From contig JAUYHP010000031.1 of NCBI GenBank assembly GCA_030689595.1, forward strand, positions 86,666 through 150,665: 64,000 bases of DNA. The letters are read 5' to 3'. Below the pieces are notes generated by a model. It had not been told where the DNA came from. It saw only the letters and a program-made list of their open reading frames with translations, and did not search any database. Shown here piece by piece: positions 33,573-64,000 of the stretch (position 1 is the stretch's first letter; each line of letters opens with the position of its first letter). Source of the DNA: a bacterium. GTDB taxonomy: Bacteria > Patescibacteriota > Minisyncoccia > UBA6257 > WO2-44-18. A program made the translations under genes and the position numbers.

Positions 33573-34145
33573 ATGAAAAAAATATTATCATGGACATTTG
33601 TAGGGGTATTATTAGTTGGGGTTTATATATTAGTTACTCCTAGTTGGGATTATGATTTTCCTAGATATCGTGGCGAATCCATTACTAAAATAGGTGATGA
33701 TCCATTCATCCAACAAGTACCGCAGGACTATGCAGAGAGATATCAACAGGAATTGTCAGAATACAAAGAGTCTTTGGCTAACGATCCCAGCGATATTGAA
33801 GGCTGGTTGCGCGTTGGTGTTATAAAACATTTTTTTAACAATCATGATGGTGCCAAAGATGTTTGGGAGTATGCTAAATTAGTTAACCCCAAGCATTCTA
33901 CCGCTTATTATAATTTGGGCGGTCTTTATGCCTGGTATCTTAACGACTTGGAAGCGGCTGAAGAAAACTATCTTGAAGCTTTGGAGATAGATCCTACTTT
34001 GCCATACATCTATCTTGGGTTAGCAGAATTTTATAGCGTTTTCTACACGGATAAAAATGACCAAATTGAGGAGGTTATTTCGCGTGGTTTGAAGATTCTT
34101 CCTGATGATGAGAGCTTGTTGAAAGCCCTAGAAGATTATCGTTAA
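33573..34145 (+). CDS. Membrane-anchored TPR-repeat protein
   Basis: N-terminal TM helix and TPR-like repeats (AYYNLGGLYAW…, YIYLGLAEFY…). Confidence 0.6.
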   Translation: MKKILSWTFVGVLLVGVYILVTPSWDYDFPRYRGESITKIGDDPFIQQVPQDYAERYQQELSEYKESLANDPSDIEGWLRVGVIKHFFNNHDGAKDVWEYAKLVNPKHSTAYYNLGGLYAWYLNDLEAAEENYLEALEIDPTLPYIYLGLAEFYSVFYTDKNDQIEEVISRGLKILPDDESLLKALEDYR

Positions 34146-35341
34146 GTCTTTTTAATCAAATAGATATTTTCAGTAGCTTTTGTCATATTAGCTATGTTTA
34201 GCCAAGTTTTTATACCTTGTTTGGCATTAATTGCTAGTTTTTCACGCTCATTTTTATTGGTGATAAGGTGCTCTATAGCTCTGGCTAATTCGGTCGGTTC
34301 CTTGGGCATGACTATCAATCCGCGATGTTGGTTGGTTTTATGATTTTCTACTACTTCGGGCATGCCGCCGATGCGAGTGGTTATAATCGGTAAGCCGGCC
34401 GCCATAGCCTCCAAAAGCGTAAAAGGCAGACCTTCTTTGATAGACGACAAGACAAATGTATCATAGGCCTTAAGATAAGGAGCAGCGGGGAAGAGGTTGC
34501 TTACGATAAAAAATCGGTTAAGCAGTCCGAGTTTAATTATTAATGACTGAAGACTTTTCTTTTCTTGCCCATCGCCGACTATGAAAAACTTAATATCGGG
34601 GTTATTTATGAGGGCCGCCGCTTTTACGAAGGTTTCGTAGTTTTTTTCTTTTACCAGACGGCCGATTGAGCCGATCCAGGTTTGGTCAGTGAGCAGCGGA
34701 TATCTGGTATTGGGTAGTAATTTTAGTAGAGCTTTGCGGGCGGCGGTTTTATCCAGGAAATGTAGACGCTTTGTGTCCAGTCCATTATGAATAGTTGTCA
34801 ATTTTTCGGGTTGGCTGATTTTATATTTTAGTGCCAGCTTGTGGTCATATTGGGAAACATTGATTATATGGTCTTGGAAATGAGCGGCTAATCTATGCGT
34901 CCAAATATAAAATTGGCGTAACAATGGGTTGATGGCGTTGGTTGGATTGAAGACCCAGCCATGAGCGGTGAATATTACCTTGGGCGTTGGGCGTTGGGTT
35001 TTAGGTTTCAGAACTTTATACAGGGTGGCGGCGAAAGCGCCAATGATGCCGGCTTTGGAGCTGTTGAGGTGGATGATATCCGGCTGGTGTTTATTAAAGA
35101 TTCGCCATAGTTCTATGGTGGCTAGGACGTCATTAGCAAATAATAGATAGGGCCTAAAGGAATTTGAAAGCCAGCGGGATGTTAAATGGTGCGATAATGA
35201 TGTTCCGGCTTTTCCGGTTAATATTAGGGCTTCAAATTTATGGCTGTCTAGATTGCTAATGAGGTCGTTAATATATTTTTGGGCGCCACCTATATCTCCT
35301 TTGGTGACAACATAAAGAATTTTTAATTTTGACTGGGTCAT
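34142..35341 (-). CDS. Glycosyltransferase family 4 (GT-B fold)
   Basis: LKILYVVTKGDIGGAQ… N-terminus and a C-terminal EGLPFTLLEAMAAGLPIITTRIGG motif (the E-X7-E region). Confidence 0.75.
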   Translation of the reverse strand: MTQSKLKILYVVTKGDIGGAQKYINDLISNLDSHKFEALILTGKAGTSLSHHLTSRWLSNSFRPYLLFANDVLATIELWRIFNKHQPDIIHLNSSKAGIIGAFAATLYKVLKPKTQRPTPKVIFTAHGWVFNPTNAINPLLRQFYIWTHRLAAHFQDHIINVSQYDHKLALKYKISQPEKLTTIHNGLDTKRLHFLDKTAARKALLKLLPNTRYPLLTDQTWIGSIGRLVKEKNYETFVKAAALINNPDIKFFIVGDGQEKKSLQSLIIKLGLLNRFFIVSNLFPAAPYLKAYDTFVLSSIKEGLPFTLLEAMAAGLPIITTRIGGMPEVVENHKTNQHRGLIVMPKEPTELARAIEHLITNKNEREKLAINAKQGIKTWLNIANMTKATENIYLIKKT

Positions 35342-35364
35342 AGGTTTTATAATACGATCTATAT

Positions 35365-36606
35365 ATGAAGGATAGAGATTTAAGTAGTTTAATCAAGAAA
35401 GAGATGAAGAGGCAAGAGATGACGATTAATCTTATTGCTTCGGAAAATTATGTTTCTCCCGAAGTTTTAGAAGTTGTCGGTTCGCCATTGATGAATAAGT
35501 ATTCCGAGGGTTATCCTGGTAGGCGCTATTATCCCGGCAATGAATTTTATGATAATATCGAGGTCTTGGCTCAAAAGCGGGCTCTAGAGGTTTTCGGTTT
35601 GAAACCTGATGACTGGAGCGTGAATGTTCAGTCGTATTCTGGCTCACCGGCGAATTTAGCTATCCAGCTAGCGCTAATGAACTGGGGAGACGTGTTGATG
35701 GGTATGCAGCTTCCGTCTGGCGGCCATTTAACCCATGGCCATAAAGCTAGTTTTTCCGGTAAGGCTTATAAGGCCGTGCAGTATGGCACAGATGCCAAAA
35801 CCGGCTTGATTGATTTTAAAAAAGTTAAGGCACTAGCTAAAAAGTATAACCCCAAAGTAATTATTTCGGGTTTCACGGCCTATCCGCGCAAAATTGATTT
35901 CAAAAAATTTGGCGATATTGCCAAATCAGTTGGCGCCTATCATGTGGCTGATATTTCTCATGTTGCCGGTCTGATTCTCGCCGGTTTACATCCCAGTCCC
36001 TTTTCTAACGCTGACGTGGTTATGACTACGACCCATAAGACTTTACGAGGTCCAAGAGGGGCGGTTATTTTTGTAAATCGTAAATCGAAAATCGCGAAGC
36101 GTAATAAGATTGATTTACCTAAGGCGATTGATAAGGCTGTTTTCCCAGGGGTCCAGGGCGGTCCGCACAACAACATCACTGCTGCTAAGGCCCTTTCGTT
36201 TTCAGAGGCAAGTCGCCCTTCTTTTAAGAAATATCAACGACAAATAATTGCCAATGCTAAATTTTTAGCTAGCGAGCTCATAAAGCTTGGATTTAATCTA
36301 GCCACTAACGGAACCGATAATCATTTAATGTTAATAGATTTAAAAAGCTGCAATATGGATGGCGCTATTGCAGAAAGATTATTAGAGAAGAACGATATTA
36401 CCGCTAATCGCAATGCCATATTTGGCGATAAGTCTCCGCTAAAGCCGTCTGGTCTTAGGATAGGAACGCCAGCAGTTACTAGTAGAGGCATGAAGAAGTT
36501 GCAAATGAAGCAAATAGCTTCGTTAATATATCGTTGCTTGATAGGCCGAGAGGACATAAAGACGGAAGTGGCGGTGCTTTGCAAAAGGTTTCCATTACCT
36601 TATTAA
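35365..36606 (+). CDS. glyA: Serine hydroxymethyltransferase
   Basis: LIASENYVSPEVLEVVGSPLMNKYSEGYPGRRYY and the PLP-lysine region TTTTHKTLRGPRG. Confidence 0.95.
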   Translation: MKDRDLSSLIKKEMKRQEMTINLIASENYVSPEVLEVVGSPLMNKYSEGYPGRRYYPGNEFYDNIEVLAQKRALEVFGLKPDDWSVNVQSYSGSPANLAIQLALMNWGDVLMGMQLPSGGHLTHGHKASFSGKAYKAVQYGTDAKTGLIDFKKVKALAKKYNPKVIISGFTAYPRKIDFKKFGDIAKSVGAYHVADISHVAGLILAGLHPSPFSNADVVMTTTHKTLRGPRGAVIFVNRKSKIAKRNKIDLPKAIDKAVFPGVQGGPHNNITAAKALSFSEASRPSFKKYQRQIIANAKFLASELIKLGFNLATNGTDNHLMLIDLKSCNMDGAIAERLLEKNDITANRNAIFGDKSPLKPSGLRIGTPAVTSRGMKKLQMKQIASLIYRCLIGREDIKTEVAVLCKRFPLPY

Positions 36607-36614: not shown

Positions 36615-38525
36615 ATGTTTATTGTAGACGGGAAAAAAATTTCTCAAGAAATTATAGATTCACTATTTGTATTGCCCAAGCCGCAAAATAGTTTGGCGGC
36701 TGTTTTAGTTGGTGATGATCCTGCCTCATTGAGTTTCTTAAAGCAGAAACAAAAAATTGCCGAGAAATTGAAAATAGATTTTCGGTTAAATACACTCCCC
36801 GATTCATTAACGGAAAACGAACTTAAAGAAAAAATCAGTGAATTGAGCTCAGATAAATCTATTGGTGGCATTATCATACAGCTACCATTACCGTCGAAAT
36901 ATGATCGGGGCAAGGTTTTAGAATCGTTGTCCTTAGAAAAAGACGTGGATGGCTTAAGTGGTGGTATTTTGCCGCCAGCGGTAGCTACTGTGGAAACTGT
37001 ATTGGACAACGCCAATTTTGACTTAAAAGATAGGACCGTGGCGGTAGTTGGTAGGGGGTTTTTAGTTGGTAGCCCGATAAGTAATTGGCTAAAAGATAAA
37101 TGTGACAAGCTGATTGTTCTAGACAGCCGAAGCGATATCAACCAGATCAAAGAAGCAGATTTAGTTATCAGCGGAGTAGGCAAGGCCGGCCTTATCAAGC
37201 CAGCAATGCTCAAGCTAGGAGCTGGAATCATAGATTTTGGCTATGACATCAAAGATGGAAGGATCTCTGGGGACTTTGACACCGATCGATTAGCCGATCT
37301 ACCCACGGATCAATACCCAGCTTTCTATACTCCCACCCCTGGAGGTACTGGCCCTATTCTAGTGGCCGAACTGTTTAGGAATTTTTATCGGCTGCAAGGA
37401 CTGATTAAAGCCAGGGTGGCTATTTTTAGCTTGGCTTATTTGCCGTTTGTTGGTGGTGCTGAATTAGCGGTTAAAGAAATTACTGATAGATTGCCGCAAT
37501 ATAATTTTACTTGTTTGACTCATAAATTTGAGTCGCAGTGGTCGGCAGAAGAAGCGATCGGCAATGTCAGGGTTATGCGTACCGGTCGTGGCCGAGGTTT
37601 TTGGTCCAAGATCTGCTATATCTTTCGAGTTTGGCGTCAAGCAGAGAAACTGCACAGGAAGCGACCTTTCCAGCTCATCTGGGCTGTCATGGCCGCTTAC
37701 GGTGGCTTAGCGGCCTTATTATTTAAACTAAGACATCCGAGTGTGCCGATGCTATTAACTTTGCAGGAGGGTGATTCTGAAAAACATATTCTAATGCGAG
37801 TTGGTATATTTTATCCTTTTTGGAAATTGATTTTCAAAAAAGCCAACTATGTTCAAGTTATCAGTAATTATCTTGCTGATTTTGCCCAGCGACACGGGGC
37901 TAAATGTTCGGTAGAAGTAGTGCCTAATGGAGTAGATTTAGAAAAATTTAGAATGGGCGCTCGACATGATGCTTCGAACACCAAAGTTATCATCACGACG
38001 TCGAGATTAGTGTATAAAAACGGAGTAGATATATTAATTCAGTCACTCAATGAGCTAGAAAAATTAGAAATTACTGATTATCGATTAAAAATATTAGGGA
38101 GCGGCCCTGATGAGAAAAAAATGAAAGATTTAGCCCAAGAGTTGGGCGTTGCTGACAAAGTAGAATTTTTGGGCCACATTGCGCCAGACGAAATCCCTAA
38201 ATATTTACAGCAAGCCGATATATTCGTGCGACCATCGCGCTCAGAAGGCCTTGGCAGCTCATTTCTTGAGGCTATGGCCGCTGAACTACCAATTATCGGT
38301 ACTGATGTTGGTGGTATAAAAGACTTTTTAGTCGATCAAGAGACTGGCCTAGTATGCAAAGTTGATGACCCAAGTGATTTAGCTAATAAATTGAAGTTGT
38401 TGTTTGATAATCAGCCACTAAGAGATAAGGTAGCCCAAAACGGTAAAAATCTAGTTATAACTAAATATAGCTGGGATATCATTACTGTGGATATGAAGAA
38501 TATATTAAACAAATTAGTTGCCTGA
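36615..38525 (+). CDS. folD: In-frame fusion of FolD (methylene-THF dehydrogenase/cyclohydrolase) and a GT4 glycosyltransferase
   Basis: Residues 1-275 are FolD-like (AAVLVGDDPAS, IIIQLPLP, VAVVGRGFLVGSPI, TPTPGGTGPILVAELF). They continue with no stop into a GT4 domain (RVAIFSLAYLPFVGGAELAV…SRSEGLGSSFLEAMAAELPIIGTDVGG). The start at 36615 lies 8 nt after the glyA stop. Confidence 0.7.
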   Translation: MFIVDGKKISQEIIDSLFVLPKPQNSLAAVLVGDDPASLSFLKQKQKIAEKLKIDFRLNTLPDSLTENELKEKISELSSDKSIGGIIIQLPLPSKYDRGKVLESLSLEKDVDGLSGGILPPAVATVETVLDNANFDLKDRTVAVVGRGFLVGSPISNWLKDKCDKLIVLDSRSDINQIKEADLVISGVGKAGLIKPAMLKLGAGIIDFGYDIKDGRISGDFDTDRLADLPTDQYPAFYTPTPGGTGPILVAELFRNFYRLQGLIKARVAIFSLAYLPFVGGAELAVKEITDRLPQYNFTCLTHKFESQWSAEEAIGNVRVMRTGRGRGFWSKICYIFRVWRQAEKLHRKRPFQLIWAVMAAYGGLAALLFKLRHPSVPMLLTLQEGDSEKHILMRVGIFYPFWKLIFKKANYVQVISNYLADFAQRHGAKCSVEVVPNGVDLEKFRMGARHDASNTKVIITTSRLVYKNGVDILIQSLNELEKLEITDYRLKILGSGPDEKKMKDLAQELGVADKVEFLGHIAPDEIPKYLQQADIFVRPSRSEGLGSSFLEAMAAELPIIGTDVGGIKDFLVDQETGLVCKVDDPSDLANKLKLLFDNQPLRDKVAQNGKNLVITKYSWDIITVDMKNILNKLVA

Positions 38526-38526
38526 T

Positions 38527-39576
38527 ATGAAAGTCGCTGTTATCGGTGCCGGTATTTTTGGCATAACTGTAGCCACCCGCTTGGCCAAAGAAGGCCACGA
38601 AATAGATCTATGGGAAAAGCAAGGCGATATTTTGACTGCGGCTTCTGGCATAAATCAATTCCGTCTTCATCGTGGCTATCACTATCCTCGATGTGATAGT
38701 ACGACTAGGTCGTCTTTAGAGACAGAAAAATTATTTAAACAAGAATATCCGGAGGCGATCATTAGTGATGGTGACCACTACTATTGCATTGCCAAAGAGC
38801 GCAGTCTAATTTCCGGGGAAACTTATGTTAATTTTTGTAAAAGCTTTAATTTAGAGTTTGCTCATCATAATTTGGACATAATAAATCCAGATTCAGTAGA
38901 TGTCTGCTTGAATGTTAAAGAAGATTTGATAGATGCGGATAAATTAAAAGAATTGTGTTTCGCTAAGATAAGGGAGTCGGGGGTGAATTTATTATTGGGT
39001 ATGGAGGCGACTAAAAAAGGTTTGGAAGATTATGACTTTGTTGTGATTTGCGCCTATGCCGCCACCAATAAACTCTTGGAAGATCGCCCAGGTTTACAGC
39101 GAGACTATCAATTTGAACTTTGTGAAAAGCCGGTATTGAGATTGCCGCCGATTTTCAATAACAAGAGCGTAGTGATTATGGACGGCCCTTTTACCTGCAT
39201 TGATCCCTATGGCAAGACTGGTTTATTTGTTATGGGTAATGTGGTTCATGCCATACATCAGACTAATGTTGGCAAATATCCGATTGTCGAAGACAAATTC
39301 AAGCCGCTTTTAAATAATGGTGTTATAAAAAATCCATCGATAACCAATATAAAATTATTTATTGAGGCGGCGTCATATTTTATGCCAGAGATAGTTAAAG
39401 CCGAGCATGTTGGCTCGATGTTTACTTTCAGGACTGTTTTGCCAAATCAAGACAAGACTGATTCGCGTCCAACCTTGGTAGATATGATCGATGACCGAAT
39501 TATCACTGTGTTTTCTGGTAAGATTAGTAATTGCATAGGGGCGGCTGAGAAAGTTTCTAGAATCATAAATTCCTGA
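38527..39576 (+). CDS. FAD/NAD(P)-binding Rossmann-fold oxidoreductase
   Basis: MKVAVIGAGIFGITVATRLAKEGHEIDLWE is a GxGxxG dinucleotide-binding N-terminus. Family not resolved; it does not look like Glf. Confidence 0.5.
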   Translation: MKVAVIGAGIFGITVATRLAKEGHEIDLWEKQGDILTAASGINQFRLHRGYHYPRCDSTTRSSLETEKLFKQEYPEAIISDGDHYYCIAKERSLISGETYVNFCKSFNLEFAHHNLDIINPDSVDVCLNVKEDLIDADKLKELCFAKIRESGVNLLLGMEATKKGLEDYDFVVICAYAATNKLLEDRPGLQRDYQFELCEKPVLRLPPIFNNKSVVIMDGPFTCIDPYGKTGLFVMGNVVHAIHQTNVGKYPIVEDKFKPLLNNGVIKNPSITNIKLFIEAASYFMPEIVKAEHVGSMFTFRTVLPNQDKTDSRPTLVDMIDDRIITVFSGKISNCIGAAEKVSRIINS

Positions 39577-39578: not shown

Positions 39579-40709
39579 ATGAAAATTATTTTAGCAGCTG
39601 GTGTATTTTACCCTGATGTGGGTGGGCCAGCTATACATGTTCGCAAAATTGCTGAAGCTTTTACCAAAAATGGTTGGAGCGTAAAAGTCATAACCTATGG
39701 ACATAATAAGGATGAGGATAATTTTCCCTTCGTTGTTAGTAGGGTTTCTAGGAGTTATCCTGGGTTTTTGCGCTGGCTGATATATTTTATTAAGATGTTT
39801 TTTAGTTCGTTTAATGCTGGAGCCATCTATGCTTTCGACCCCACCGCTGCTGGCTTACCAGCGGCTTTAGCGGCCAAGATTTTAAGAAAAAAATTTATTA
39901 TTAGATTGGGTGGCGATCCTATTTGGGAGCGTGTGGTAGAGCGTGGTGAGCGATTCTTATCTTTGGAGGACTATTATGAACAAAAGCTTCATCTACAAGA
40001 TAAGCCTAGGTTGTTCAAGTTGATAAGGTGGGTCATGAAATCGGCCGATAGAGTTGTTGTCTATTCACAATTTTTTAAAGATTTTTGTGTAAAATATTTA
40101 GGAGTGGAGCCGAATAGGATAGAGATAATAGCCAATCCCGTTACTAGGCGAGAAGACGCTTCAATGCCCAAGGAAATAGCCATATTGTTTGCTGGCCGAT
40201 TCGTGAAATACAAAAATCTGGAAATGCTGGTAGAGGTATTTGCTAAATTGAGATCAAAATTCCAGTATGGCAAGTTAATTTTGATAGGCCATGGGCCAGA
40301 AGAAGACGTGCTTCGGGATTTGGTTGAGAATATCGGGGCCAGCGATTATATCGAGATATTACCATCGCTTCCCCAAGAAGCATTATTTAATCAGATTCGT
40401 TCTGCTGCAGTTTGCATAGGCCCGGCTCTTAGCGAATTTAACCCTAATTTTATATTAGAGTGCTTATCGTTTGGCAAGCCGACTATTTTGAGCAAAGGGA
40501 ACGGCTTAACTGTGCAGTTGCCGGAAGACTGGCTGTTCGATCCTAAGAGCGCTAGTGATTTGGAAAACAAGTTGTCACAGTTTTTTGATAAGAATTTCTA
40601 TGAACAATCTTTGGCGCGAGTTAAGCAGTTACCGATGAGCCAGAGTTGGGAAAAAGTAGTTGGCGAACATATAGAAATAATAAAACAGATGACAAAGCGT
40701 AAAATTTAA
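39579..40709 (+). CDS. Glycosyltransferase family 4
   Basis: MKIILAAGVFYPDVGGPAIHV… GT-B N-terminal domain. 376 aa. Confidence 0.7.
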   Translation: MKIILAAGVFYPDVGGPAIHVRKIAEAFTKNGWSVKVITYGHNKDEDNFPFVVSRVSRSYPGFLRWLIYFIKMFFSSFNAGAIYAFDPTAAGLPAALAAKILRKKFIIRLGGDPIWERVVERGERFLSLEDYYEQKLHLQDKPRLFKLIRWVMKSADRVVVYSQFFKDFCVKYLGVEPNRIEIIANPVTRREDASMPKEIAILFAGRFVKYKNLEMLVEVFAKLRSKFQYGKLILIGHGPEEDVLRDLVENIGASDYIEILPSLPQEALFNQIRSAAVCIGPALSEFNPNFILECLSFGKPTILSKGNGLTVQLPEDWLFDPKSASDLENKLSQFFDKNFYEQSLARVKQLPMSQSWEKVVGEHIEIIKQMTKRKI

Positions 40710-41845: not shown

Positions 41846-42536
41846 AAAGATAACAATCATAATACCTGCTTATAACGAAAAAGAAACTATTCTTGAAATC
41901 ATAAGTAAGGTTAAGGCCGCTGATATCGGAGTTTTGAGTAAAGAAATTATTGTTGTCGATGATGGATCGACTGACGGTACGCGAGATATTCTCCGGGACA
42001 TACCTGGCATACAGGTTGTCTTACATAACAATAATTGTGGCAAAGGCGGCGCTGTCAAAACCGGATTTCATAACGCTACTGGTGATGTTTTGATCATTCA
42101 GGATGCTGATTTAGAATATGATCCGGCAGAATATTCCCTGTTATTAGAGCCAATATTGAAAAATAAAGCCGAAGTGGTTTATGGTTCGCGGTTTGTTTCC
42201 AGTAAGCCGAGACGTATTTTACTTTTCCATCATTATTTAGCGAATCGTTTTTTGACCTTCTTATCAAATTTGTTTACTAATCTTAATCTCAGCGATATGG
42301 AGACTTGTTATAAGGTTTTCTCCAATAATATCTATAAGCAATTGGAGCCAAAATTGGTGTCGCGGAGATTTGGCATAGAGCCGGAATTGACTGCTCGGGT
42401 TGCTAGGCTCAAGGCCAAAGTCTATGAAGTCGGCATCTCTTATCACGGCCGTAATTATGAAGAGGGCAAGAAGATTAATTGGCGTGATGGCATAGCGGCT
42501 ATTTGGCATATTATTCGATTTAACGTTTTCAACTAA
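41832..42536 (+). CDS. GT2 polyprenyl-phosphate sugar synthase (DPM1/GtrB-like)
   Basis: IIIPAYNE…VVDDGSTDGT…DADL (DXD) motifs; 234 aa. Immediately upstream of a GT-C gene. Confidence 0.75.
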   Translation: MMEIKKITIIIPAYNEKETILEIISKVKAADIGVLSKEIIVVDDGSTDGTRDILRDIPGIQVVLHNNNCGKGGAVKTGFHNATGDVLIIQDADLEYDPAEYSLLLEPILKNKAEVVYGSRFVSSKPRRILLFHHYLANRFLTFLSNLFTNLNLSDMETCYKVFSNNIYKQLEPKLVSRRFGIEPELTARVARLKAKVYEVGISYHGRNYEEGKKINWRDGIAAIWHIIRFNVFN

Positions 42537-46398: not shown

Positions 46399-46408
46399 TC
46401 GATAATTA

Positions 46409-50639: not shown

Positions 50640-50645
50640 TTACTT

Positions 50646-51683: not shown

Positions 51684-51686
51684 AGA

Positions 51687-53773: not shown

Positions 53774-53808
53774 AAATTATTATTAAAACATAGCCGATTT
53801 TTTCTAGG

Positions 53809-54924: not shown

Positions 54925-54927
54925 AAT

Positions 54928-55863: not shown

Positions 55864-56039
55864 ATTGATTATGTGACCCCTCACATAAATTTATGAAAAT
55901 CATTGTTGGCCAAAAACCGATTTATACTCAATAACTGTTTTATAAAATGGGCCACCTGATTAAATTTATAAGCGGGGTGCTCAATTTTGCAGCCAGTCGA
56001 GCTGCATTTAAATAACTTGCCCTTCTGGGCAAAATTGGC

Positions 56040-57863
56040 ATGTGCGGCATTGCTGGTTTTAATTTTAAAGATGAGTCTTTGATGCAATCCATGATTGGCT
56101 CTATCGATCACCGCGGTCCTGATGACCATGGGGTATTTAGTGATGATAAAGTGACCCTTGGTCATAAACGATTGTCCATCATTGACCTATCTAGCGCTGG
56201 GCATCAGCCTATGTTCAATGATGATCGTAGCTTGGCGATCGTATATAATGGCGAAGTCTATAATTTTCAGAATCTTCGCCAAGAGTTGATAAATAAAGGC
56301 CATAAGTTCCGTAGTCGCACTGACACGGAAGTGATCCTAAGGGGCTATGACGCTTATGGCGAAGATGTATTTAATAAATTGCGAGGCATGTGGGCGTTAG
56401 CTATTTATGACAGGCGACACAATAGGATTGTATTGTCGCGAGACTTTTTTGGCATTAAGCCGCTGTATTATTATCACGACGCAGATAGCCTAGTGTTTGC
56501 CTCAGAGAGCAAGGCAATAATTACATTTCTTAAGAAAAGAAATATCAAACTTCACAATTCACCAGAGGGCCTAGCTAGTTATTTTGTTCTTGGTTATACC
56601 CCGCAACCCCTAACGATGTCGCAGGAGATAAAGAAGGTGGCCCCTGGAGAAATAATAGAATTTGATTTGGCGAGCAGGCGGATTGTGTCTAAGTCATTGC
56701 TTTGGCCACAAAGCATTGGAGTTAGTGATCCCAAAGATTTTGAAATGGTAATGTTGGAAAGTGTAGAGCGCCACTTGATATCTGATGTTCCGGTCGGGGT
56801 ATTTTTGTCAGGTGGAGCAGACTCGACGCTTATCGCTCTTTTGTTAAAAAAATTAAACCAGAAGTTGAAGGCCTTTACGGTGAGGATTCCCGGTAAAAAA
56901 GATGCTGACTTTGCTGGCAAAATTGCTAAATTTGCCAACTTAGATCATGAAGAAATAGTATTTGATGATGATAAGTTCGAAGAGATGTATCAGAAATTGT
57001 GGCTCATGCTTGACCAGCCCGTAGCTGACACATCTTTGTTGCCCAGCCTGCTAGTGTCTCAAGTAGCTTCTAAATCGGTTAAAGTGGTTATGGCGGGCGA
57101 GGGCGGGGATGAGCTTTTTTGGGGCTACGATCGCCACCAGTCATTAATGGGCGCGAACAATATTTTGGAGCCTAGTAAATTTGTCGAATGGCTAAATAAT
57201 AGGCGCCAGCCCACTAGTGATTTGTATCTAAGGTATTTAAGGCCTATTTTGAGGCGCTTGCGTCATAGTGGCCTGAAACGACGTGGAGATTTTTTGGGTT
57301 TATATTTAGAGCTGACCAATCTTAGTAATGATTTTGTTAGTCGTATAGAGCTGCATAGATATTTTGAACGACGGCTCAATGGTGTTAAGCCAGAAGTTGG
57401 CTCCTTTGATAGAATGTTCTACTTGCCGGATGACCTTTTGTATAAAAACGATTTTGCTACTATGGCGAATACAATAGAGGGCAGAGTGCCGATATTAGAC
57501 AAAGAAGTTTATGCGTTCACTAATGGATTAGCCACTGAATACAAGTTGAGTAATGGGGTTAGCAAAAAGATAGTTAAGGACTACCTAGCCGCTAGCTTGC
57601 CGCCAGAATTGATTCTGCGGTCGAAAGAGGGGTTCAGCATACCTATAGAGCCATTTATATTGAAACACCACAAGAAGGACATAGAAGAGGGCATAGCTTA
57701 TTTACTGGATTGTCATATTGAATATATTGATCGTCGAGTGTTGAGTAAATTACTCTCTGACGAAAATTATTTTGTTCTAATAAGCAAAAAATTTCCATCA
57801 TTGTTATTTATGATATTAGTCTTTTATAAAACCACTTCAAAATATCAATGGGCCGATCTATAA
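56040..57863 (+). CDS. asnB: Asparagine synthase (glutamine-hydrolysing)-family amidotransferase
   Basis: N-terminal MCGIAGF nucleophile and the SGGADS PP-loop. Confidence 0.85.
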   Translation: MCGIAGFNFKDESLMQSMIGSIDHRGPDDHGVFSDDKVTLGHKRLSIIDLSSAGHQPMFNDDRSLAIVYNGEVYNFQNLRQELINKGHKFRSRTDTEVILRGYDAYGEDVFNKLRGMWALAIYDRRHNRIVLSRDFFGIKPLYYYHDADSLVFASESKAIITFLKKRNIKLHNSPEGLASYFVLGYTPQPLTMSQEIKKVAPGEIIEFDLASRRIVSKSLLWPQSIGVSDPKDFEMVMLESVERHLISDVPVGVFLSGGADSTLIALLLKKLNQKLKAFTVRIPGKKDADFAGKIAKFANLDHEEIVFDDDKFEEMYQKLWLMLDQPVADTSLLPSLLVSQVASKSVKVVMAGEGGDELFWGYDRHQSLMGANNILEPSKFVEWLNNRRQPTSDLYLRYLRPILRRLRHSGLKRRGDFLGLYLELTNLSNDFVSRIELHRYFERRLNGVKPEVGSFDRMFYLPDDLLYKNDFATMANTIEGRVPILDKEVYAFTNGLATEYKLSNGVSKKIVKDYLAASLPPELILRSKEGFSIPIEPFILKHHKKDIEEGIAYLLDCHIEYIDRRVLSKLLSDENYFVLISKKFPSLLFMILVFYKTTSKYQWADL

Positions 57864-57870
57864 CAAATAT

Positions 57871-58563
57871 ATGTCTGATAACAAAATTACAAAAGAAGAG
57901 ATAGCGCGTGGTTATGATGAATTGGCCGATCATATGGCCGATGGTGGTTTGGCCTACAGTTTTTATAATAAAGTAGCTACCTTCAGCCGCCCCTATCGTG
58001 GCCATATTTTGGATGTGGGTTGCGGTTCTGGGATTCTGCTGCAACGAGCTGGGCGCTTAGCCGATGCCGGAACAAAGTTTTACGGATTGGATATTTCTCC
58101 CAAGTTGTGTGATTTAACCAGAGCTAATAATCCCGAGGCCGAGGTGTCTTGCGGCGATGCTGAAGATATGTCCTATGACGACAATAAGTTTGACATGGTG
58201 CTGATGACTGAAGCGTTGGAGCATATGCTTGATTACAACAAATCTCTTTCAGAAGTGCGTCGTGTTTTAAAACCCGGAGGTAAATTTATTGTTACTGTGC
58301 CTAATAGGGATTGGTTGAGATATGACTTTTATGACAAGATTCGCAATAAAGAATTGCAGCCGGTTGATGACCACTATTTTAGATTTGAGGAAATCAAATC
58401 GTATTTAGAAAATAACTCTTTTGGGATAGAAAAAATTCGCGGCTTGGATAATCTGTATTATTATGGCTGGAAGCACAATATCGAAGAAGCGGCGGCATTT
58501 TTCTTGCCATTTTTGCACAAGAAGATGAAAAGATTGTTATTCAGATGTATTAATCAAAAATAA
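57871..58563 (+). CDS. Class I SAM-dependent methyltransferase
   Basis: ILDVGCGSGILL (motif I) and LKPGGKFIVTVPN. Confidence 0.7.
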   Translation: MSDNKITKEEIARGYDELADHMADGGLAYSFYNKVATFSRPYRGHILDVGCGSGILLQRAGRLADAGTKFYGLDISPKLCDLTRANNPEAEVSCGDAEDMSYDDNKFDMVLMTEALEHMLDYNKSLSEVRRVLKPGGKFIVTVPNRDWLRYDFYDKIRNKELQPVDDHYFRFEEIKSYLENNSFGIEKIRGLDNLYYYGWKHNIEEAAAFFLPFLHKKMKRLLFRCINQK

Positions 58564-58567
58564 CGGA

Positions 58568-59701
58568 ATGAGGATCGCTATATTCAGTTATATAATGGAT
58601 CGTAAAGCTATGGGAACGGCTTTGCATACTCGTGAGATAGTGGATAATCTGCTAAAGATAAAGCGCCCCGAAGACGAAATATATCTTGTCCATCGAAAGA
58701 AGTATGACCACCCGTTGTATAATCATCCCGAGATTAATGAAATCGTAATGCCCAAAGTGCCGACGCCGCGTTTAGCCAATGTGATATCGGAGGCCATTTT
58801 TTTATGGAAGACTCGCAATGATTTCGATGTTATCCATTATACACAAGAGGCCATTTACCCATTATTTTGGTTATCTAATGCTAAAATTGTAGTTACCATA
58901 CACAGCGCGGCTGAGGGTTGGCGTGACTATGCCATGAGGATCAGGTGGTGGTTAGTCTATTTAACTTTCAAAATTTTTAAGAGGAGACTCGATGCTATTA
59001 TTTCGGTTTCTGAAACCACCAGAAAAAGCTTTCAGAGTTATTTCAATATTCCAAGAGAAAAGATACATGTGATTCGCGAAGGAGTGATTGAGGCTTTTCG
59101 TGATCGGCATGATAGGCTGGCTTCCGAACGGCTGGCTTCAGAGAAATATAATATCAGATTGCCATATATCTTTAACGGTAGTCGTGTGGATCCACAAAAA
59201 AATATACCAGGATTGATTAAGGCCTTCGCTAAATTAAAGAAAGATCATAACATTCCACATCAATTAGTCGTTGGGCCAAAGCATTGGCCAAAAAAAGAGG
59301 TGAAACGAGTTGATGGTCTTATAGAAAACCTCAAACTCGAAGAAGATGTTGTATTTATTAAGTACGTCGAAGAAGAAGATATGCCCAGCTTATATTTTGG
59401 CTCTGACCTTTTTGTCTATCCATCTCTTCACGAAGGCTTTGGCTTGCCGTTGTTGGAGGCTATGGCCGCTGGAGTGCCGATAGTAACTGGCAATACTTTC
59501 TCAATGCCAGAGATTGCTGGTGATGCGGCCTTATTGGCTGATCCTTACGATCCATCAGACATAGCTTCAGCCATGTGGAAGGTATTGGATGATGCAAAGC
59601 TTAAGCGTGAATTGGTTAGACGTGGGAATGCTAGGGTCAAGAATTTTGGTTGGAATAAAATGACCGGAGAAATATTTGAGCTGTATAAGCAATTAGTCTA
59701 A
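58568..59701 (+). CDS. Glycosyltransferase family 4
   Basis: EGFGLPLLEAMAAGVPIVTGN motif. Confidence 0.75.
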   Translation: MRIAIFSYIMDRKAMGTALHTREIVDNLLKIKRPEDEIYLVHRKKYDHPLYNHPEINEIVMPKVPTPRLANVISEAIFLWKTRNDFDVIHYTQEAIYPLFWLSNAKIVVTIHSAAEGWRDYAMRIRWWLVYLTFKIFKRRLDAIISVSETTRKSFQSYFNIPREKIHVIREGVIEAFRDRHDRLASERLASEKYNIRLPYIFNGSRVDPQKNIPGLIKAFAKLKKDHNIPHQLVVGPKHWPKKEVKRVDGLIENLKLEEDVVFIKYVEEEDMPSLYFGSDLFVYPSLHEGFGLPLLEAMAAGVPIVTGNTFSMPEIAGDAALLADPYDPSDIASAMWKVLDDAKLKRELVRRGNARVKNFGWNKMTGEIFELYKQLV

Positions 59702-59720
59702 ATAATTTATATCCAAAACT

Positions 59721-60152
59721 ATGGAAATGCCACTATCAGAAATAATAGACCGTTATACTATCTTGAAATTAAAGATGGAGCGGCTTTCTGATGCACAAAA
59801 AAACGCAGAGGCCCTGCTAGCTCACGAGTTTGCGACATACAGCCGTGCTTTAGAAGAGTTTAAGTCTGGGGGGGTCAGTATAAAATCTGAATGGCTTGAC
59901 GATTTATACAAAATTAATGGCCGCTGCTGGGACCTTGAGGCTGATATACGCCAAGGCAAAGAGGGTGATTTGGGCTTAGAGGAAGTCGGGCGACGAGCTA
60001 TAATGATTAGAGATATTAATCAGAAAAGGGTTGCGGTAAAAAATATTATAGCTCGCGAGACAGGACTAGGTTTCCAAGAGGTAAAGATCAATCACGCTTC
60101 TGCGGACACCGGTTCTTATGATGTTGATAGGCCCAACCCGACCTTAAGCTAA
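59721..60152 (+). CDS. Hypothetical soluble protein inside the glycan locus
   Basis: 143 aa with no TM helices. No family recognised. Confidence 0.4.
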   Translation: MEMPLSEIIDRYTILKLKMERLSDAQKNAEALLAHEFATYSRALEEFKSGGVSIKSEWLDDLYKINGRCWDLEADIRQGKEGDLGLEEVGRRAIMIRDINQKRVAVKNIIARETGLGFQEVKINHASADTGSYDVDRPNPTLS

Positions 60153-60153
60153 T

Positions 60154-62553
60154 TTGTTTAATAGAATAGAAAATTTTGGCGAACGATGGTATGGGGTTAC
60201 TGTTCTGCTAGCCCTATTGTTTATTTTAGCATTTGCGCCATTGCTGTTGGGTGGGCAGTTAGTTTTTGACGATGATTTACTTGGAACCTTCTATCCTTAT
60301 TATCATTTTTATTCTCAATCGATCGATAGTGGCGATAGCTTTCTCTGGAATCCAAATTCATCATCTGGCTATCCACCATTCGTAGGCATAGTGAATTCAT
60401 TATTATCGCCAGTTACTTATTTGTTGTCTGTTTTGCTACCGCCCTTGGCTAATTATCATTGGACGCTGTGGTTCTATATAGTTTTGGCGATATTTTTCTG
60501 TGATCTTTTTTTGCGTGATGTGGGCATCAAATTTTGGGGACGACTGATCGGTGCGCTAGTCTTTGTCAGCGGGCCGATATTTTTGAATCTGGATATTTCT
60601 ACTATAGCGCCGATGTATGCTCTGCCATTAATGTTGTTTTGTTTATGGCGCATTAAGCACAGTCAGAGATTGTGGGCCTATGTCATTTTGGGTGGTATTG
60701 GCCTGACGGTTTCTTGGCTGGCTAGTTTTCAAGGGTTCTTATTGCAGGTTTTTATATTTGCTGGTGCGTTCGTGTTGGTTCTAGGTTGGAAAGATCGAGT
60801 TGTTTTGCGTCGGTTGATTGCGGCTTTGATTTTAATAGTGCTGATTGCAGCAGCTTTAAGCTCCTTTTATCTGTATTGGGGGTCAACACTTGCTAGCTTA
60901 TCAGAGCGTGCTGGAGGGTTGAGTTATGAGCAATCGGCTGTAAAAGCTACTACGCTTTGGGATTTATCTAGATTCTGGCTGCCTAGTTTTAAGGTTAATT
61001 ATTTTGCCATTAGTCAGGCCACGCTTTATTTAGGATTTTTGCCATTATTTTTCTTTGTCTTAGCATTTTTTAAACGCCAGACTAACAGGCTTTATTATTT
61101 TTTCTTGCTAGCTTATGCAGTGGCGTTTCTTATTAGCATTAAATATTCGCCACTTTTTTGGATTTTGCAAAAATTACCCATTCTAAATTTATTTAAGGTG
61201 CCGAGTAGGTGGATGTTCACCAGTTCATTTGCGGCGGCCTTTTTAATAGCTACCAATGTAAATATAATTTTTGATTCAACGGAAAAAATTGGCAAAAAGA
61301 TTTATAGCTGGTTTGCTCGGGTGAATTGTACAATAGCCGCCATCATAGCGGTGGCGTCGTCATTATTTATATTTGGCTATGATAGGATATTAGCTTTTTT
61401 AAAAAGTCTTTTCTTAGCGAATTTTTATGCAGGCACATCGCAAGCCATACCATTAGATTCTTATTACCGACTTATAGAAACTTGGTTGGGCAATTTCAGA
61501 AGGGTTTTTGACTTATCAGTAGCCACAGTTTTTTGGCCATTTATATTTATGGTTTTGGGTTTGGCCCTGCTGTGGATTTTTTATAGCAAACAGATTTTAG
61601 ATAATAAATCATTCATTCGTTGGGCTGGCGTTCTGACAGTCTTTAATTTTCTATTTGTTCTCTACAGTTTTTACCCCACTTTCAGCCAAAAAATAGTTGA
61701 GGATAAATCACCAACTATAGAATTTTTACAGCAACATCCGGGCAAGTTTTTATCTTTTTTGCCTAATAGGCCTCATCATGAATACGCCGTCTCACCTCAC
61801 GATCTTACGATTGAGACTCAAGTCGCCCCTTGGCTATTGGGGTTGAATTCTGACATTCATCTATTATATGGCTTGGATGGCGCTGGCAACTCCGATTCCT
61901 TGTTGAATCGTCGTATGGGGAGATTGTTGGCGGCAGTGGGTGAGGGCTCAATTTTGGGTGAATCTGAAGAGGTTAATTTGATAGATCAATTGGTTACACC
62001 CGAAGAGAAAATTAAAACTTTGGAAAGTCGCCGCAACTTGTTAGATTGGCTTGGCATTCGTTATATTATCACTGCCTACGAGCTTGGAGAGCCTTTTAAA
62101 AAAGTTTTGACTACTCGTAATCAGCTACCATATGACTACGAAGTTTTTATTTATGAGAATCCAAGTTATCATTCGTCGGCTTATTTATCGGAGAACGTTG
62201 AGATTATGAAGCAAGACGAGCATATTTCTTTTCGGCGAATGTTTAATGCCGCTAGTGCCGATGTAGATATCTTAGAATGTATTACTGAAGCTTGTTTGGG
62301 TTTGGCCAACGGGTCGTTGGCAGACAACGATGGAGTGCATATAGTAGAGCGGCATAACGATTCTATAATTTTGACTGCTGAAACTGATCGGAGTAGGTTG
62401 CTGGTGTTGCTACAAAATAATTTACCGGGTTGGCTGGCTACTATTGATGGCCAACCGGCGGAAATATTGATGGTCAATGGTACATTTATTGCCACAATAG
62501 TGCCTACGGGCGACCACAAAATAGAATTCAAATATAAGCCATGGAAAATTTAA
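60154..62553 (+). CDS. Large YfhO-like / GT-C-type membrane protein
   Basis: 799 aa with 12 or more TM helices. N-terminal loop has LVFDDDLLGTFYPYYHF, as in YfhO-family glycosyltransferases. Followed by a sugar nucleotidyltransferase and a GT2. Confidence 0.45.
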   Translation: MFNRIENFGERWYGVTVLLALLFILAFAPLLLGGQLVFDDDLLGTFYPYYHFYSQSIDSGDSFLWNPNSSSGYPPFVGIVNSLLSPVTYLLSVLLPPLANYHWTLWFYIVLAIFFCDLFLRDVGIKFWGRLIGALVFVSGPIFLNLDISTIAPMYALPLMLFCLWRIKHSQRLWAYVILGGIGLTVSWLASFQGFLLQVFIFAGAFVLVLGWKDRVVLRRLIAALILIVLIAAALSSFYLYWGSTLASLSERAGGLSYEQSAVKATTLWDLSRFWLPSFKVNYFAISQATLYLGFLPLFFFVLAFFKRQTNRLYYFFLLAYAVAFLISIKYSPLFWILQKLPILNLFKVPSRWMFTSSFAAAFLIATNVNIIFDSTEKIGKKIYSWFARVNCTIAAIIAVASSLFIFGYDRILAFLKSLFLANFYAGTSQAIPLDSYYRLIETWLGNFRRVFDLSVATVFWPFIFMVLGLALLWIFYSKQILDNKSFIRWAGVLTVFNFLFVLYSFYPTFSQKIVEDKSPTIEFLQQHPGKFLSFLPNRPHHEYAVSPHDLTIETQVAPWLLGLNSDIHLLYGLDGAGNSDSLLNRRMGRLLAAVGEGSILGESEEVNLIDQLVTPEEKIKTLESRRNLLDWLGIRYIITAYELGEPFKKVLTTRNQLPYDYEVFIYENPSYHSSAYLSENVEIMKQDEHISFRRMFNAASADVDILECITEACLGLANGSLADNDGVHIVERHNDSIILTAETDRSRLLVLLQNNLPGWLATIDGQPAEILMVNGTFIATIVPTGDHKIEFKYKPWKI

Positions 62554-63236
62554 ACCCAATAACTAAAGCAATTATACTAGCAGCCGGGCGTGGTACGCGC
62601 ATGCGTCACTTAACCGAAGATGTGCCCAAGCCGCTTTTAAAAGTTGGTGGCAAACCTTTTTTGGATATTATTTTTGACGCTTTACCAGAAAGCATTCGTG
62701 AAGTGATCGTAGTAATTGGCTACAGAAAAGATTTGATAAGAAATCACTTGGGCACCAACTACAAAGGCAAAAAAATAGATTATGTTGTTCAAGAAAAACT
62801 TACTGGCACTGGTCATGCGGTTTTATTAACTAAGGATTTGTTTGATGATGGCGAGAGGTTTCTAGTTTTTTATGGCGACGAGTTGATAGCCAAGAATGAT
62901 GTTGATGCCGTGCTTGAGCATGATCTTGGTTGGTTGTGTTGGGAGGTGGTTAATCCCAAGGCCTCGGGCATCGTAACTGTAACGGTGGAGGGGTTGATAA
63001 CTGAAATCGTTGAAAAGCCCAAAAAGCCTAAGTCTAAACTAGGCGTCGGAGGTCTAATATCGCTCAACGCCGATATCTTTAATTATGTACCCGATCAGCA
63101 CGAAACTGGTGAATATTATTTAACCGATATGATGAATCAATTTCTTAAAGATCATAAGGTACATGTAGTTATTGGTAAAAATCGCCCGTCTTTTAGTTCG
63201 CCAGAGGATATTTCTGCCGTTCATGAGACTGATTGA
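62541..63236 (+). CDS. Sugar-phosphate nucleotidyltransferase
   Basis: AIILAAGRGTRMRHLTEDVPKPLLKVGGKP is the G-x-G-T-R nucleotidyltransferase signature. 231 aa. Confidence 0.7.
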   Translation: MENLNPITKAIILAAGRGTRMRHLTEDVPKPLLKVGGKPFLDIIFDALPESIREVIVVIGYRKDLIRNHLGTNYKGKKIDYVVQEKLTGTGHAVLLTKDLFDDGERFLVFYGDELIAKNDVDAVLEHDLGWLCWEVVNPKASGIVTVTVEGLITEIVEKPKKPKSKLGVGGLISLNADIFNYVPDQHETGEYYLTDMMNQFLKDHKVHVVIGKNRPSFSSPEDISAVHETD

Positions 63237-63267
63237 AAATAAGCCATTTTTCGCCTAAGCTATAAGC

Positions 63268-64000
63268 ATGATTAAACTTTCGATTGTGGCGCCGGTTTAT
63301 AACGAGGAGGCATCAGTCAAGGAATTACACCGGGAAATCGTAGCGGCGATTAATCCTCTAGGATATAGCTATGAGATTATTTTTGTTGACGACGGCTCTA
63401 GTGACGACACTGTCAAAAATGCTATTGAATTAAAACCATTAAAATTGGTATCTTTGCAGCGAAACTATGGTCAGACACCAGCTATTGATGTAGGCATCAA
63501 CCAGGCGCATGGTGAGATTATAGTTTTGTTGGACGCCGATCTACAAAATGATCCAGCTGATATACCGAAATTGTTGACTAAGATGGAGGAGGGCTATGAC
63601 GTGGTTATCGGTCAGCGTCAGGGTAGAAAAGAAAAATTGGGCCGAGTTATTTTTTCAAAAATAGCTAATTCAGTCGCGCGCGGCTTGTTGGGTGTGAAGA
63701 TACACGATTTTGGTTGCGGCCTCAAAGCTTATCGCAGTCGTCTAATCAAAGATTTTCGTTTATGGGGTGAGTCGCAAGTATTCTTGCCAGCAGTTGCCAA
63801 GAGTCGCGGCGCCAAAATAGGCGAAGTGTTTGTTACTTATCACCCACGTCAATTTGGTAGCGCTAAGGTAAAAATATCTAAAATGGTGCGCGGCGTTTTG
63901 GATTTATTTAGTATTGTGTTCTTCGTAAAATATTTTTCTAAACCTCTTAGATTTTTTGGTGGTTGGGGTCTGGTGTCTTTATTTTTGTCGGTTATAGCCT
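63268..64000 (+). CDS. GT2 polyprenyl-phosphate sugar synthase (GtrB/ArnC/DPM1-like), 3' end cut by the window edge
   Basis: LSIVAPVYNEE…IFVDDGSSDDT…LDADLQND and a downstream membrane anchor beginning FFGGWGLVSLFL. Confidence 0.75.
   Translation, partial: MIKLSIVAPVYNEEASVKELHREIVAAINPLGYSYEIIFVDDGSSDDTVKNAIELKPLKLVSLQRNYGQTPAIDVGINQAHGEIIVLLDADLQNDPADIPKLLTKMEEGYDVVIGQRQGRKEKLGRVIFSKIANSVARGLLGVKIHDFGCGLKAYRSRLIKDFRLWGESQVFLPAVAKSRGAKIGEVFVTYHPRQFGSAKVKISKMVRGVLDLFSIVFFVKYFSKPLRFFGGWGLVSLFLSVIA

Follow-up and report, generated by a model that had tools for sequence, protein, structure and literature searches.

The second half of a 64,000-nucleotide stretch of bacterial DNA (contig JAUYHP010000031.1 of assembly GCA_030689595.1, forward-strand positions 86,666 to 150,665; hereafter the window) very probably carries one large island for assembling a cell-envelope glycan, with enzymes acting on both faces of the membrane. 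Open reading frame (ORF) listing and Pfam and NCBIfam scans delineate a near-continuous run of glycan-assembly genes at 34142–64000, where 26 genes in all include those for seven family 4 glycosyltransferases (GT4), three family 2 glycosyltransferases (GT2), one UbiA-family enzyme, four membrane-embedded transferases of the GT-C type, one UPF0104 membrane protein, the UDP-GlcNAc 2-epimerase WecB, an AsnB amidotransferase, two methyltransferases and one sugar-1-phosphate nucleotidyltransferase. Only two genes (34142–35341 and 52118–53773) lie on the minus strand, all others being on the plus strand, and neighbouring genes overlap or are separated by 37 bp or less, the sole exception being a gap of 176 bp at 55863–56040. 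A sequence-only reading of this DNA had named these genes and arranged the donor synthases and GT-C transferases into four modules: GT2_1 and GTC_1 (module 1); GT2_2, UPF0104 and GTC_2 (module 2); the UbiA protein, a short-chain dehydrogenase/reductase (SDR), a haloacid dehalogenase (HAD) family protein and GTC_3 (module 3); and a 799-residue YfhO-like protein, the nucleotidyltransferase and GT2_3 (module 4). The ORF listing and domain scans bear out every gene that it named, coordinates and families included, and Pfam places Glycos_transf_1 and Glyco_transf_4 matches at all seven of the proposed GT4 loci; WecB, AsnB and the two S-adenosylmethionine (SAM) methyltransferases that it had set around the modules are likewise present.

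Families, folds, catalytic motifs, gene order and the conservation of gene pairings in relatives are the observations from which we infer the sugars, the role of the flippase and the acceptor in the following scheme. On the cytoplasmic face, the seven GT4 enzymes would, to judge from their families, build a glycan from nucleotide sugars, with WecB, the nucleotidyltransferase, AsnB and the two methyltransferases in support. Polyprenyl phosphate would be charged with a single sugar by four enzymes, the three GT2 proteins and the UbiA protein, the latter using phosphoribosyl pyrophosphate (PRPP). In module 3, the UbiA product would be dephosphorylated by the neighbouring HAD protein and then probably epimerised by the extended SDR to polyprenyl-P-xylofuranose, polyprenyl-P-arabinofuranose or a related pentofuranose. 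The lipid-linked sugars would then be flipped outward, the sole candidate in the island being the UPF0104/MprF-like protein, possibly shared among modules, and on the outer face the four GT-C enzymes would transfer them to an acceptor, be it a glycan, a lipid or a protein.

By their family matches and motifs, the three GT2 proteins belong to the DPM1/GtrB/ArnC clade, and synthesis of polyprenyl-P-monosaccharides is predicted for them. GT2_1 (41832–42536, 234 residues), GT2_2 (45406–46398, 330 residues) and GT2_3 (63268–64000, cut by the window end, 310 residues when complete) score 121, 92 and 105 bits, respectively, against the Pfam GT2 model, and their best NCBIfam matches are the polyprenyl-P-sugar synthases AglJ, PpgS, ArnC and PgfS. 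Comparison with solved structures, which covered GT2_1 and GT2_2, gave DPMS of P. furiosus (5MLZ), ArnC and GtrB (5EKP) as the best matches. GT2_2, whose best NCBIfam match is PgfS, is of the GtrB/ArnC type and aligns full-length with PgfS and with the ArnC and GtrB structures, including the pair of C-terminal transmembrane (TM) helices at residues ~250–311. Two such helices are also present at ~235–284 in the full-length GT2_3, also of the ArnC/GtrB type, which is available from an independent contig (L082, described below); GT2_1 is soluble and devoid of TM helices, like PpgS and the haloarchaeal Dol-P-hexose transferase. The acidic motifs are DAD, ESD and DAD in GT2_1, GT2_2 and GT2_3. A processive polysaccharide synthase of the BcsA/PgaC/NodC/HAS kind, the alternative class against which the proposed donor synthases had to be checked, can be rejected: the QxxRW motif of such enzymes occurs in none of the three proteins (full-length GT2_3 being used), the sizes are wrong, and the matches to PgaC and NodC are weaker than those to the polyprenyl-P-sugar synthases and limited to the N-terminus. 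The specific sugars cannot be assigned, because all NCBIfam scores of the GT2 proteins fall far below the equivalog cut-offs, as with 159.7 bits for GT2_3 against the ArnC model, for which the cut-off is 529.

The four GT-C candidates are GTC_1 (42539–44218, 559 residues), GTC_2 (47370–48713, 447 residues), GTC_3 (52118–53773, minus strand, 551 residues) and the YfhO-like protein of module 4 (60154–62553, 799 residues). The first three exceed the 26.1-bit cut-off of the Pfam PMT_2 model with 35.6, 52.3 and 30.1 bits, respectively, and NCBI labels GTC_3 'glycosyltransferase family 39'. All four have the acidic first-loop motif that a GT-C enzyme should show, placed directly after a first TM helix whose N-terminus is predicted to be cytoplasmic: VADEF in GTC_1, D37...Y41-D42-E43 in GTC_2, D35-D36 in GTC_3 and F-D38-D39-D40 in the 799-residue protein. 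Their N-termini are rich in lysine and arginine and their first loops are net negative; topology was read from hydropathy and the positive-inside rule, and the sidedness of the motif also from analogy with solved GT-C folds. D35, D36, H65, P66, W68, E141 and D185 are invariant in an alignment of GTC_3 homologues (n=25), and the D40 column of the 799-residue protein is mostly Asp among 17 YfhO-like homologues. A comparison of folds was needed because sequence and profile searches with the GT-C proteins against PDB sequences gave no match. AlphaFold models were made for GTC_3 (pLDDT 89.6, pTM 0.90) and the 799-residue protein (pLDDT 87.6, pTM 0.88), and both, as modelled, have the GT-C fold. At significant E-values, Foldseek matches them to GT-C enzymes only, namely ArnT, AftD, AftA, AftB, STT3/AglB/PglB and DPY19 (probability 1.0) and also ALG9/12; the GTC_3 model gives TM-scores of 0.53–0.56 with ArnT and an E-value of about 1e-7 with STT3/AglB, and the 799-residue model an E-value of 1e-6 with AftD and a TMt of 0.54–0.58 with ArnT. 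The latter protein is best described as YfhO-like on account of its homologues (23–52% identity), which carry precomputed PF09586 annotations; its own match to the Pfam YfhO model stays under the gathering score. An oligosaccharyltransferase reading of GTC_1 was considered and dismissed, its sole support being a partial STT3 match of 20 bits.

Module 3 had been proposed as a UbiA, SDR, HAD and GT-C-like set following the same three-component logic as the GT2 modules. Its genes and the GT-C fold stand; in place of a GT2-based system, its gene content makes it a putative case of the PRPP-based pentofuranose system described in 2024 (PMC11127046). The UbiA protein (49803–50639; NF008977 213.6 bits), annotated as a polyprenyl-phosphate 5-phosphoribosyltransferase, matches DPPRS of M. 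tuberculosis (8J8J) over its full length with an E-value of 4.6e-39. The residues N57, D58, D61, D65, R176 and E179 are invariant and form the NDxxDxxxD and RxxE motifs; the positions altered by Kelly et al. in Citrobacter ORF15 correspond to these and were shown to matter (PMC11127046). The HAD-IIIA protein (51687–52160, 157 residues, DIDGT motif) shares 41% identity with the N-terminal domain of HAD-UbiA fusion proteins, many of which (410–441 residues) occur among the homologues. Because of these fusions in relatives, a Rosetta-stone argument, it is probably a phosphoribose 5-phosphatase; it lies two genes downstream of UbiA in locus L001 and immediately beside it in L007. The HAD and GTC_3 genes are convergent, and their 3' ends overlap by 43 bp. 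In a metagenome-assembled genome of Saccharibacteria (L004), a GTC_3 homologue stands directly upstream of a HAD::UbiA-SDR pair.

The extended SDR (50646–51683, 345 residues; a Pfam SDR epimerase with TGGSGFLG and YGKAK motifs) is a highly conserved partner of the UbiA protein. In eight other loci the two genes are found within 4 kb of each other, in six as direct neighbours, and the identity of the SDR across these eight loci is 50–77% compared with only 36–54% for UbiA itself; it is 68–77% identical across six loci of the candidate phyla radiation (CPR) type and of spirochaetes, a figure that falls to about 50% in haloarchaea and to 34% on symbiosis plasmids of rhizobia. No DprE1 (FAD_binding_4) or DprE2 (classical SDR) domain was found in the window, the only flavin adenine dinucleotide (FAD) enzyme there being of the DAO type and 10 kb away. 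Epimerisation of the DprE1/DprE2 kind is rejected on these grounds, and since such domains are absent a single-SDR epimerisation is the likely route. In the Citrobacter system, the SDR ORF13 converts Und-P-Ribf to Und-P-Xylf, and DprE1/E2 homologues yield Araf (PMC11127046); the SDR of the island resembles ORF13 at the level of class, both being extended SDRs with TGxxGxxG and YxxxK motifs encoded beside the synthase. A plasmid of Natronococcus sp. CG52 (L088; NZ_CP099392.1, 202422–209645) has the gene order SDR, GT-C, UPF0104, PHP phosphatase, UbiA and GT39, with an SDR 51% identical to that of the window. Its gene content makes it an archaeal form of the pentofuranose module, having PHP in place of HAD and UPF0104 as the candidate flippase. 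On plasmid pNGR234a of Sinorhizobium fredii NGR234 (L087; 299625–307690), the genes run SDR (34%), SMR transporter, GMC oxidoreductase, 658-residue hypothetical protein, second SDR and 490-residue UbiA protein, the last about 5 kb from the first SDR. This cluster, possibly of the noeC type, may serve a lipid-linked pentofuranose in rhizobia. A broader proposal can be put forward only tentatively: that the UbiA-linked extended SDR is a single-enzyme polyprenyl-P-ribofuranose epimerase replacing DprE1/DprE2, that the DDxxYY family of GT-C enzymes takes donors from interchangeable cassettes, and that one UPF0104 protein serves several polyprenyl-P-sugars. If the single-enzyme SDR is real, many ultra-small bacteria and haloarchaea would display arabino- or xylofuranose on their surfaces.

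Comparison with relatives shows which of the proposed modules co-vary: WecB-GT2-GT-C, UbiA-SDR(-HAD) and YfhO-GT2 are kept together, and module 1 was not seen elsewhere. The closest long relative (L083), in which the GTC_3 homologue is 42% identical, is syntenic over about eight genes in the order GTC_1-like protein, WecB (444 bits), GT2_2 (472), GTC_2 (320), methyltransferase, two GT4s and GTC_3 (454). WecB-GT2-GT-C is thus a conserved unit, and the presence of WecB hints at N-acetylmannosamine as the sugar of module 2. In place of UbiA-SDR-HAD, L083 has a different SDR, a 235-residue GT2 and an FAD amine-oxidase-like protein. Similar cassettes, with a 235–239-residue GT2 and a different SDR beside GTC_3 homologues of 36–42% identity, occur at L083 4004–8707, L084 7001–11679 and L085 7001–11433, the third gene encoding either an FAD amine-oxidase/PRK07233-like protein or one of the RGP type (UDP-arabinopyranose-mutase-like). 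Because alternative cassettes flank GTC_3 homologues in these loci, the donor cassette beside this type of GT-C appears to be exchangeable, and the mutase-like genes hint that both kinds of cassette make furanose donors. For module 4, a Sungbacteria locus (L089) has a YfhO-like gene followed by the same nucleotidyltransferase, as at 60154 and 62541. The YfhO-like relatives in two further loci are tandem or duplicated genes: L090 (3560–12739) reads GT2, radical SAM, YfhO, YfhO, UPF0104, GT2 and AsnB, and L091 (1–14295) combines YfhO with a set reminiscent of Arn (GT2, SDR, DegT aminotransferase and formyltransferase), a gene content that suggests formamido-sugar donors in some CPR genomes.

The UPF0104 protein (46409–47395) matches PF03706 (LPG_synthase_TM) with 130.5 bits and TIGR00374 with 55.8 bits, both above cut-off. 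The proposed three-component logic of GT2, flippase and GT-C is literally true for module 2, where 10 bp separate GT2_2 from the start of the UPF0104 gene, which in turn shares 26 bp with GTC_2; it does not extend to the island as a whole, in which a single flippase-like gene accompanies four modules. ORF listing and Pfam scans found no GtrA, SMR or MATE gene between 34 and 64 kb. The position of the gene favours its assignment to module 2, and the protein may be a general or shared flippase for polyprenyl-P-sugars. Because a scan of metagenomes for relatives of the UPF0104 protein gave none, its co-variation could be judged from other loci only; among these, L001 has an EamA-like gene of 122 residues and pNGR234a the SMR gene.

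Several observations weigh against reading the locus as one coordinated island with four lipid-linked donors. Genes for a priming phosphoglycosyltransferase, Wzx/Wzy, an ABC exporter or a ligase are absent from the window and from the 8.5 kb that follow it. There is one candidate flippase for four modules, and L083, the closest syntenic relative, has WecB-GT2-GT-C without UPF0104. The topology of the GT-C proteins was judged from hydropathy and the positive-inside rule only, the 799-residue protein reaches 27.2 bits in the Pfam YfhO model (cut-off 28.5) over residues 729–797 only, and the UbiA protein falls below the NCBIfam equivalog cut-offs (213.6 vs 234 for NF008977 and 200.8 vs 207 for a second model). 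In module 1, GT2_1 is devoid of TM helices and aligns with solved polyprenyl-P-sugar synthases over the N-terminal half only (residues 5–128 in the phmmer alignment to DPMS/ArnC), and its pairing with GTC_1 was not found in another genome among the relatives' loci examined. These features of module 1 would also fit a fairly doubtful view in which it is no module, GT2_1 being a Leloir GT2 of the ordinary sort that lengthens the glycan in the cytoplasm and GTC_1 receiving its donor from elsewhere; the NCBIfam matches of GT2_1, all far under their cut-offs, and locus L086, where a GTC_1-like protein is preceded by a GT4 and not by a GT2, agree with that. The best matches of GT2_1 nevertheless remain short polyprenyl-P-sugar synthases without TM helices (AglJ at 113.9 bits over nearly the full length, PpgS of 226 residues and the haloarchaeal Dol-P-hexose transferase of 213 residues), the comparable 235–239-residue GT2 proteins of L083–L085 adjoin GT-C genes, and GTC_1 starts only 2 bp past the end of GT2_1. 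Adjacency is what pairs the two genes, and module 1 is regarded as a candidate. It is quite unlikely that the UPF0104 protein and a neighbouring glycosyltransferase make and flip a glycosylated membrane lipid, in the manner of MprF or GpgSDF, or that UPF0104 serves the UbiA module. The known or proposed roles of the domain, in MprF and in GpgF (PMC12713373), do concern translocation of phospholipids or glycolipids, L083 lacks the UbiA cassette as well as UPF0104, and the Natronococcus locus has UPF0104 between the GT-C and PHP-UbiA genes. Against this stand the tight junctions of UPF0104 with GT2_2 and GTC_2, the order YfhO-YfhO-UPF0104-GT2 in L090, the absence of a lipid-headgroup deacetylase or aminoacyl-PG synthase domain, and the conserved archaeal neighbourhood of AglD-like GT2, UPF0104 and PMT/STT3-like genes (PMC5898192), the function of which is itself only predicted (PMC5898192).

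The acceptor raises a further possibility, one to be taken seriously though on the whole improbable, namely that the GT-C enzymes are protein O-glycosyltransferases, similar to PMT/Ppm1 or the streptococcal PgfS-PgfM, acting on Ser/Thr-rich surface proteins; the donor logic would be unchanged. Three of the GT-C proteins match PMT_2, GTC_3 bears the family 39 label, and PgfS is the best NCBIfam match of GT2_2; the PgfS system is described as glycosylating Ser/Thr-rich regions (PMC12041528). The lack of polymer export and priming genes would fit as well, and directly 5' of the island, at 29760–33407, a 1215-residue protein is encoded that has an N-terminal signal or anchor, a PG_binding_1 domain, 24% Ser+Thr and an apparently β-strand-rich structure. 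This protein is a possible surface glycoprotein acceptor, but it is tied to the island by adjacency only. The seven GT4s, the sugar-modifying enzymes and AsnB point instead to a complex glycan, PMT_2 includes ArnT-like enzymes that act on lipids or glycans, and the structural neighbours of the modelled GT-C proteins are ArnT and Aft enzymes besides STT3. That the locus is a mosaic of unrelated collinear pathways, for example for a peptidoglycan-linked polymer, a glycolipid and a glycoprotein, is fairly unlikely. Such a mosaic would be in keeping with the housekeeping genes for serine hydroxymethyltransferase (SHMT) and FolD inside the island, with the swapping of cassettes among relatives (UbiA-SDR-HAD versus GT2, another SDR and an FAD enzyme beside the same GT-C family), and with the different neighbours that each module has in its relatives. 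About 28 kb of packed or overlapping genes on one strand, with two exceptions, and the synteny over some eight genes with L083 argue for the single coordinated island.

The left boundary of the island is real, because the genes upstream of 34 kb are housekeeping genes (PilB-type ATPase, RuvB, Fpg, UvrB, Mur ligase and ClpB). Farther upstream, at 10919–11359, four tRNA genes (Lys-TTT, Leu-CAA, Leu-TAG and Leu-TAA) lie together on the minus strand. The right boundary falls outside the window: contig L082, from an independent assembly (Logan SRR13727534), is identical over 13,847 bp to window positions 50154–64000, with 0 mismatches, and continues the island for at least 8.5 kb beyond base 64000 (L082 13115–22400). 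The genes there encode the full 310-residue GT2, a 670-residue GFO/IDH/MocA-DAO fusion, a GHMP kinase, a SIS_2 isomerase, a transaldolase/FSA-like protein, a HAD-like protein, a second GFO/IDH/MocA protein, a second AsnB (622 residues) and another SDR. The kinase, isomerase and phosphatase of this extension, together with the nucleotidyltransferase at 62541, resemble a pathway of the GDP-heptose type. The best homologues of the UbiA protein, the YfhO-like protein and GTC_3 are of the Parcubacteria type (Sung-, Magasanik-, Giovannoni-, Harrison- and Kaiserbacteria, Paceibacterota and 'Patescibacteria group'), which makes it likely that the host belongs to the CPR; a reduced genome would be expected for it.

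The remaining genes fill the space around the modules. At the left edge of the island, a GT4 on the minus strand (34142–35341; Glycos_transf_1 131 bits, Glyco_transf_4 73 bits) is followed by SHMT (35365–36606; Pfam SHMT 527.6 bits) and by an ORF that had been read as a GT4 starting at 36534. The GT4 is there, as the C-terminal half; the true start is an ATG at 36615, and the whole ORF (36615–38525, 636 residues) is an in-frame fusion of FolD with GT4, in which THF_DHG_CYH domains precede the GT4 domains. No stop codon intervenes at the junction (...RLQGLIK|ARVAIFSLAY), where a GTG codon (V of ARVAIF) is a possible internal start. A conserved architecture is rejected, since the top 150 representatives include no second example and the closest GT4 is preceded by an N-terminal extension unrelated to FolD; the fusion may be a recent stop-codon loss or an assembly error, the independent contig, which matches the window from 50154 on, not covering this stretch. 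The next gene (38518–39576) encodes an FAD-dependent oxidoreductase (Pfam DAO 41.7 bits) that matches well in the N-terminal Rossmann part only; a UDP-galactopyranose mutase was considered and discarded, as there is no match to the Pfam GLF domain. Pfam identifies further GT4 genes at 39579–40709, 40727–41845, 48710–49798 (with a syntenic orthologue in L083, 384 bits), 53809–54924 and 58568–59701. WecB (44256–45425) precedes GT2_2 and scores 326 bits in Pfam and 309 bits against TIGR00236 (cut-off 210), and AsnB (56040–57863) reaches 417 bits against TIGR01536 (cut-off 267). One methyltransferase (54928–55863; Methyltransf_11) has an N-terminal Trm112-like zinc ribbon joined to its class I SAM domain (Trm112p 32.7 bits, NF038101 46.9 bits), and the other is at 57871–58563 (Pfam). 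Directly 5' of the YfhO-like gene, a soluble protein of 143 residues (59721–60152) has only sub-threshold Pfam matches (DUF6165 and DUF4254) and no NCBIfam match. Between the YfhO-like protein and GT2_3 lies the sugar-1-phosphate nucleotidyltransferase (62541–63236; Pfam NTP_transferase 94.9 bits).

CPR bacteria, or Patescibacteria, live attached to other cells, and to our knowledge almost nothing is known of their surface chemistry. The island suggests that one such organism devotes 30–40 kb to a glycan that is decorated outside the membrane with four different lipid-linked sugars, one of them a pentofuranose derived from PRPP. Sugars of this class are familiar mainly from the cell wall of mycobacteria and from some O antigens, and the island widens the three-component pentofuranose concept of 2024 to CPR bacteria and haloarchaea. 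It also provides concrete pairings that can be tested by expression, namely UbiA with HAD and SDR, WecB with GT2 and GT-C, and the YfhO-like protein with GT2.

Among known systems, module 3 is closest to that of Citrobacter youngae O1/O2, which consists of PPPRS-PRP (ORF15), an SDR epimerase (ORF13), a MATE flippase (ORF14) and a GT-C of family GT136 (ORF12) (Kelly et al. 2024, PMC11127046). The two share a UbiA protein in which the NDxxDxxxD and RxxE residues agree, a HAD-type 5-phosphatase, an extended SDR (TGxxGxxG, YxxxK) beside the synthase and a GT-C with an Asp motif after the first TM helix. HAD and UbiA are fused in ORF15, as in many CPR homologues, whereas the HAD of the island is a separate gene; the island has no MATE protein, its only candidate flippase being UPF0104, 2.4 kb upstream, and its GT-C is of a DDxxYY/PMT_2-type family. 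With the mycobacterial decaprenyl-P-arabinose pathway (Rv3806c, Rv3807c, DprE1/DprE2 and Emb/Aft), module 3 shares a first enzyme that is homologous over its full length and the predicted use of a lipid-linked pentofuranose donor by extracytoplasmic GT-C enzymes. It differs in having one 345-residue extended SDR instead of the FAD oxidase DprE1 and the classical SDR DprE2, a phosphatase of the HAD and not the PAP2 type, and a GT-C of ~550 residues with a small C-terminal domain, unlike Emb.

The GT2-based modules recall the GtrB/GtrA/GtrC and CsbB/GtcA/YfhO systems, which glycosylate O antigens and teichoic acids by three components (PMC8035078, PMC5836110, PMC7389260): GT2_2 and GT2_3 are of the GtrB/ArnC type, with two C-terminal TM helices, and are encoded near GT-C genes, one of which is YfhO-like. 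The island differs in having no small flippase of the GtrA/GtcA kind, its YfhO-like protein is very divergent, and its host is probably a CPR bacterium. The genes at 45406–48713 have the same three families in the same tight arrangement as the archaeal neighbourhood of AglD-like GT2, UPF0104 and PMT/STT3-like genes (Makarova et al. 2015, PMC5898192); here, however, the host is bacterial and WecB is attached, being kept with the GT2-GT-C pair in L083. Finally, ArnC is the best family of GT2_3, both modelled GT-C proteins have ArnT among their best matches in structure, and in L091 YfhO and GT2 are accompanied by an SDR, a DegT aminotransferase and a formyltransferase, as in aminoarabinose transfer by ArnC/ArnT, but there are no equivalents of ArnA, ArnB or ArnD by GT2_3 in the window. 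The components are therefore of kinds already known, that is, GtrB/ArnC-type GT2 with GT-C, the AglD-like/UPF0104/PMT-like trio, the UbiA/HAD/SDR/GT-C pentofuranose set and CsbB/YfhO, and no new mechanism is revealed. A search of the literature found no description of such systems in CPR bacteria. What is new is that a single island, in a genome probably of the CPR, brings four modules together, that the pentofuranose system, with its very conserved SDR, extends to CPR bacteria and haloarchaea, that the donor cassette is exchangeable, and that UPF0104 recurs in the place taken elsewhere by GtrA, SMR or MATE.

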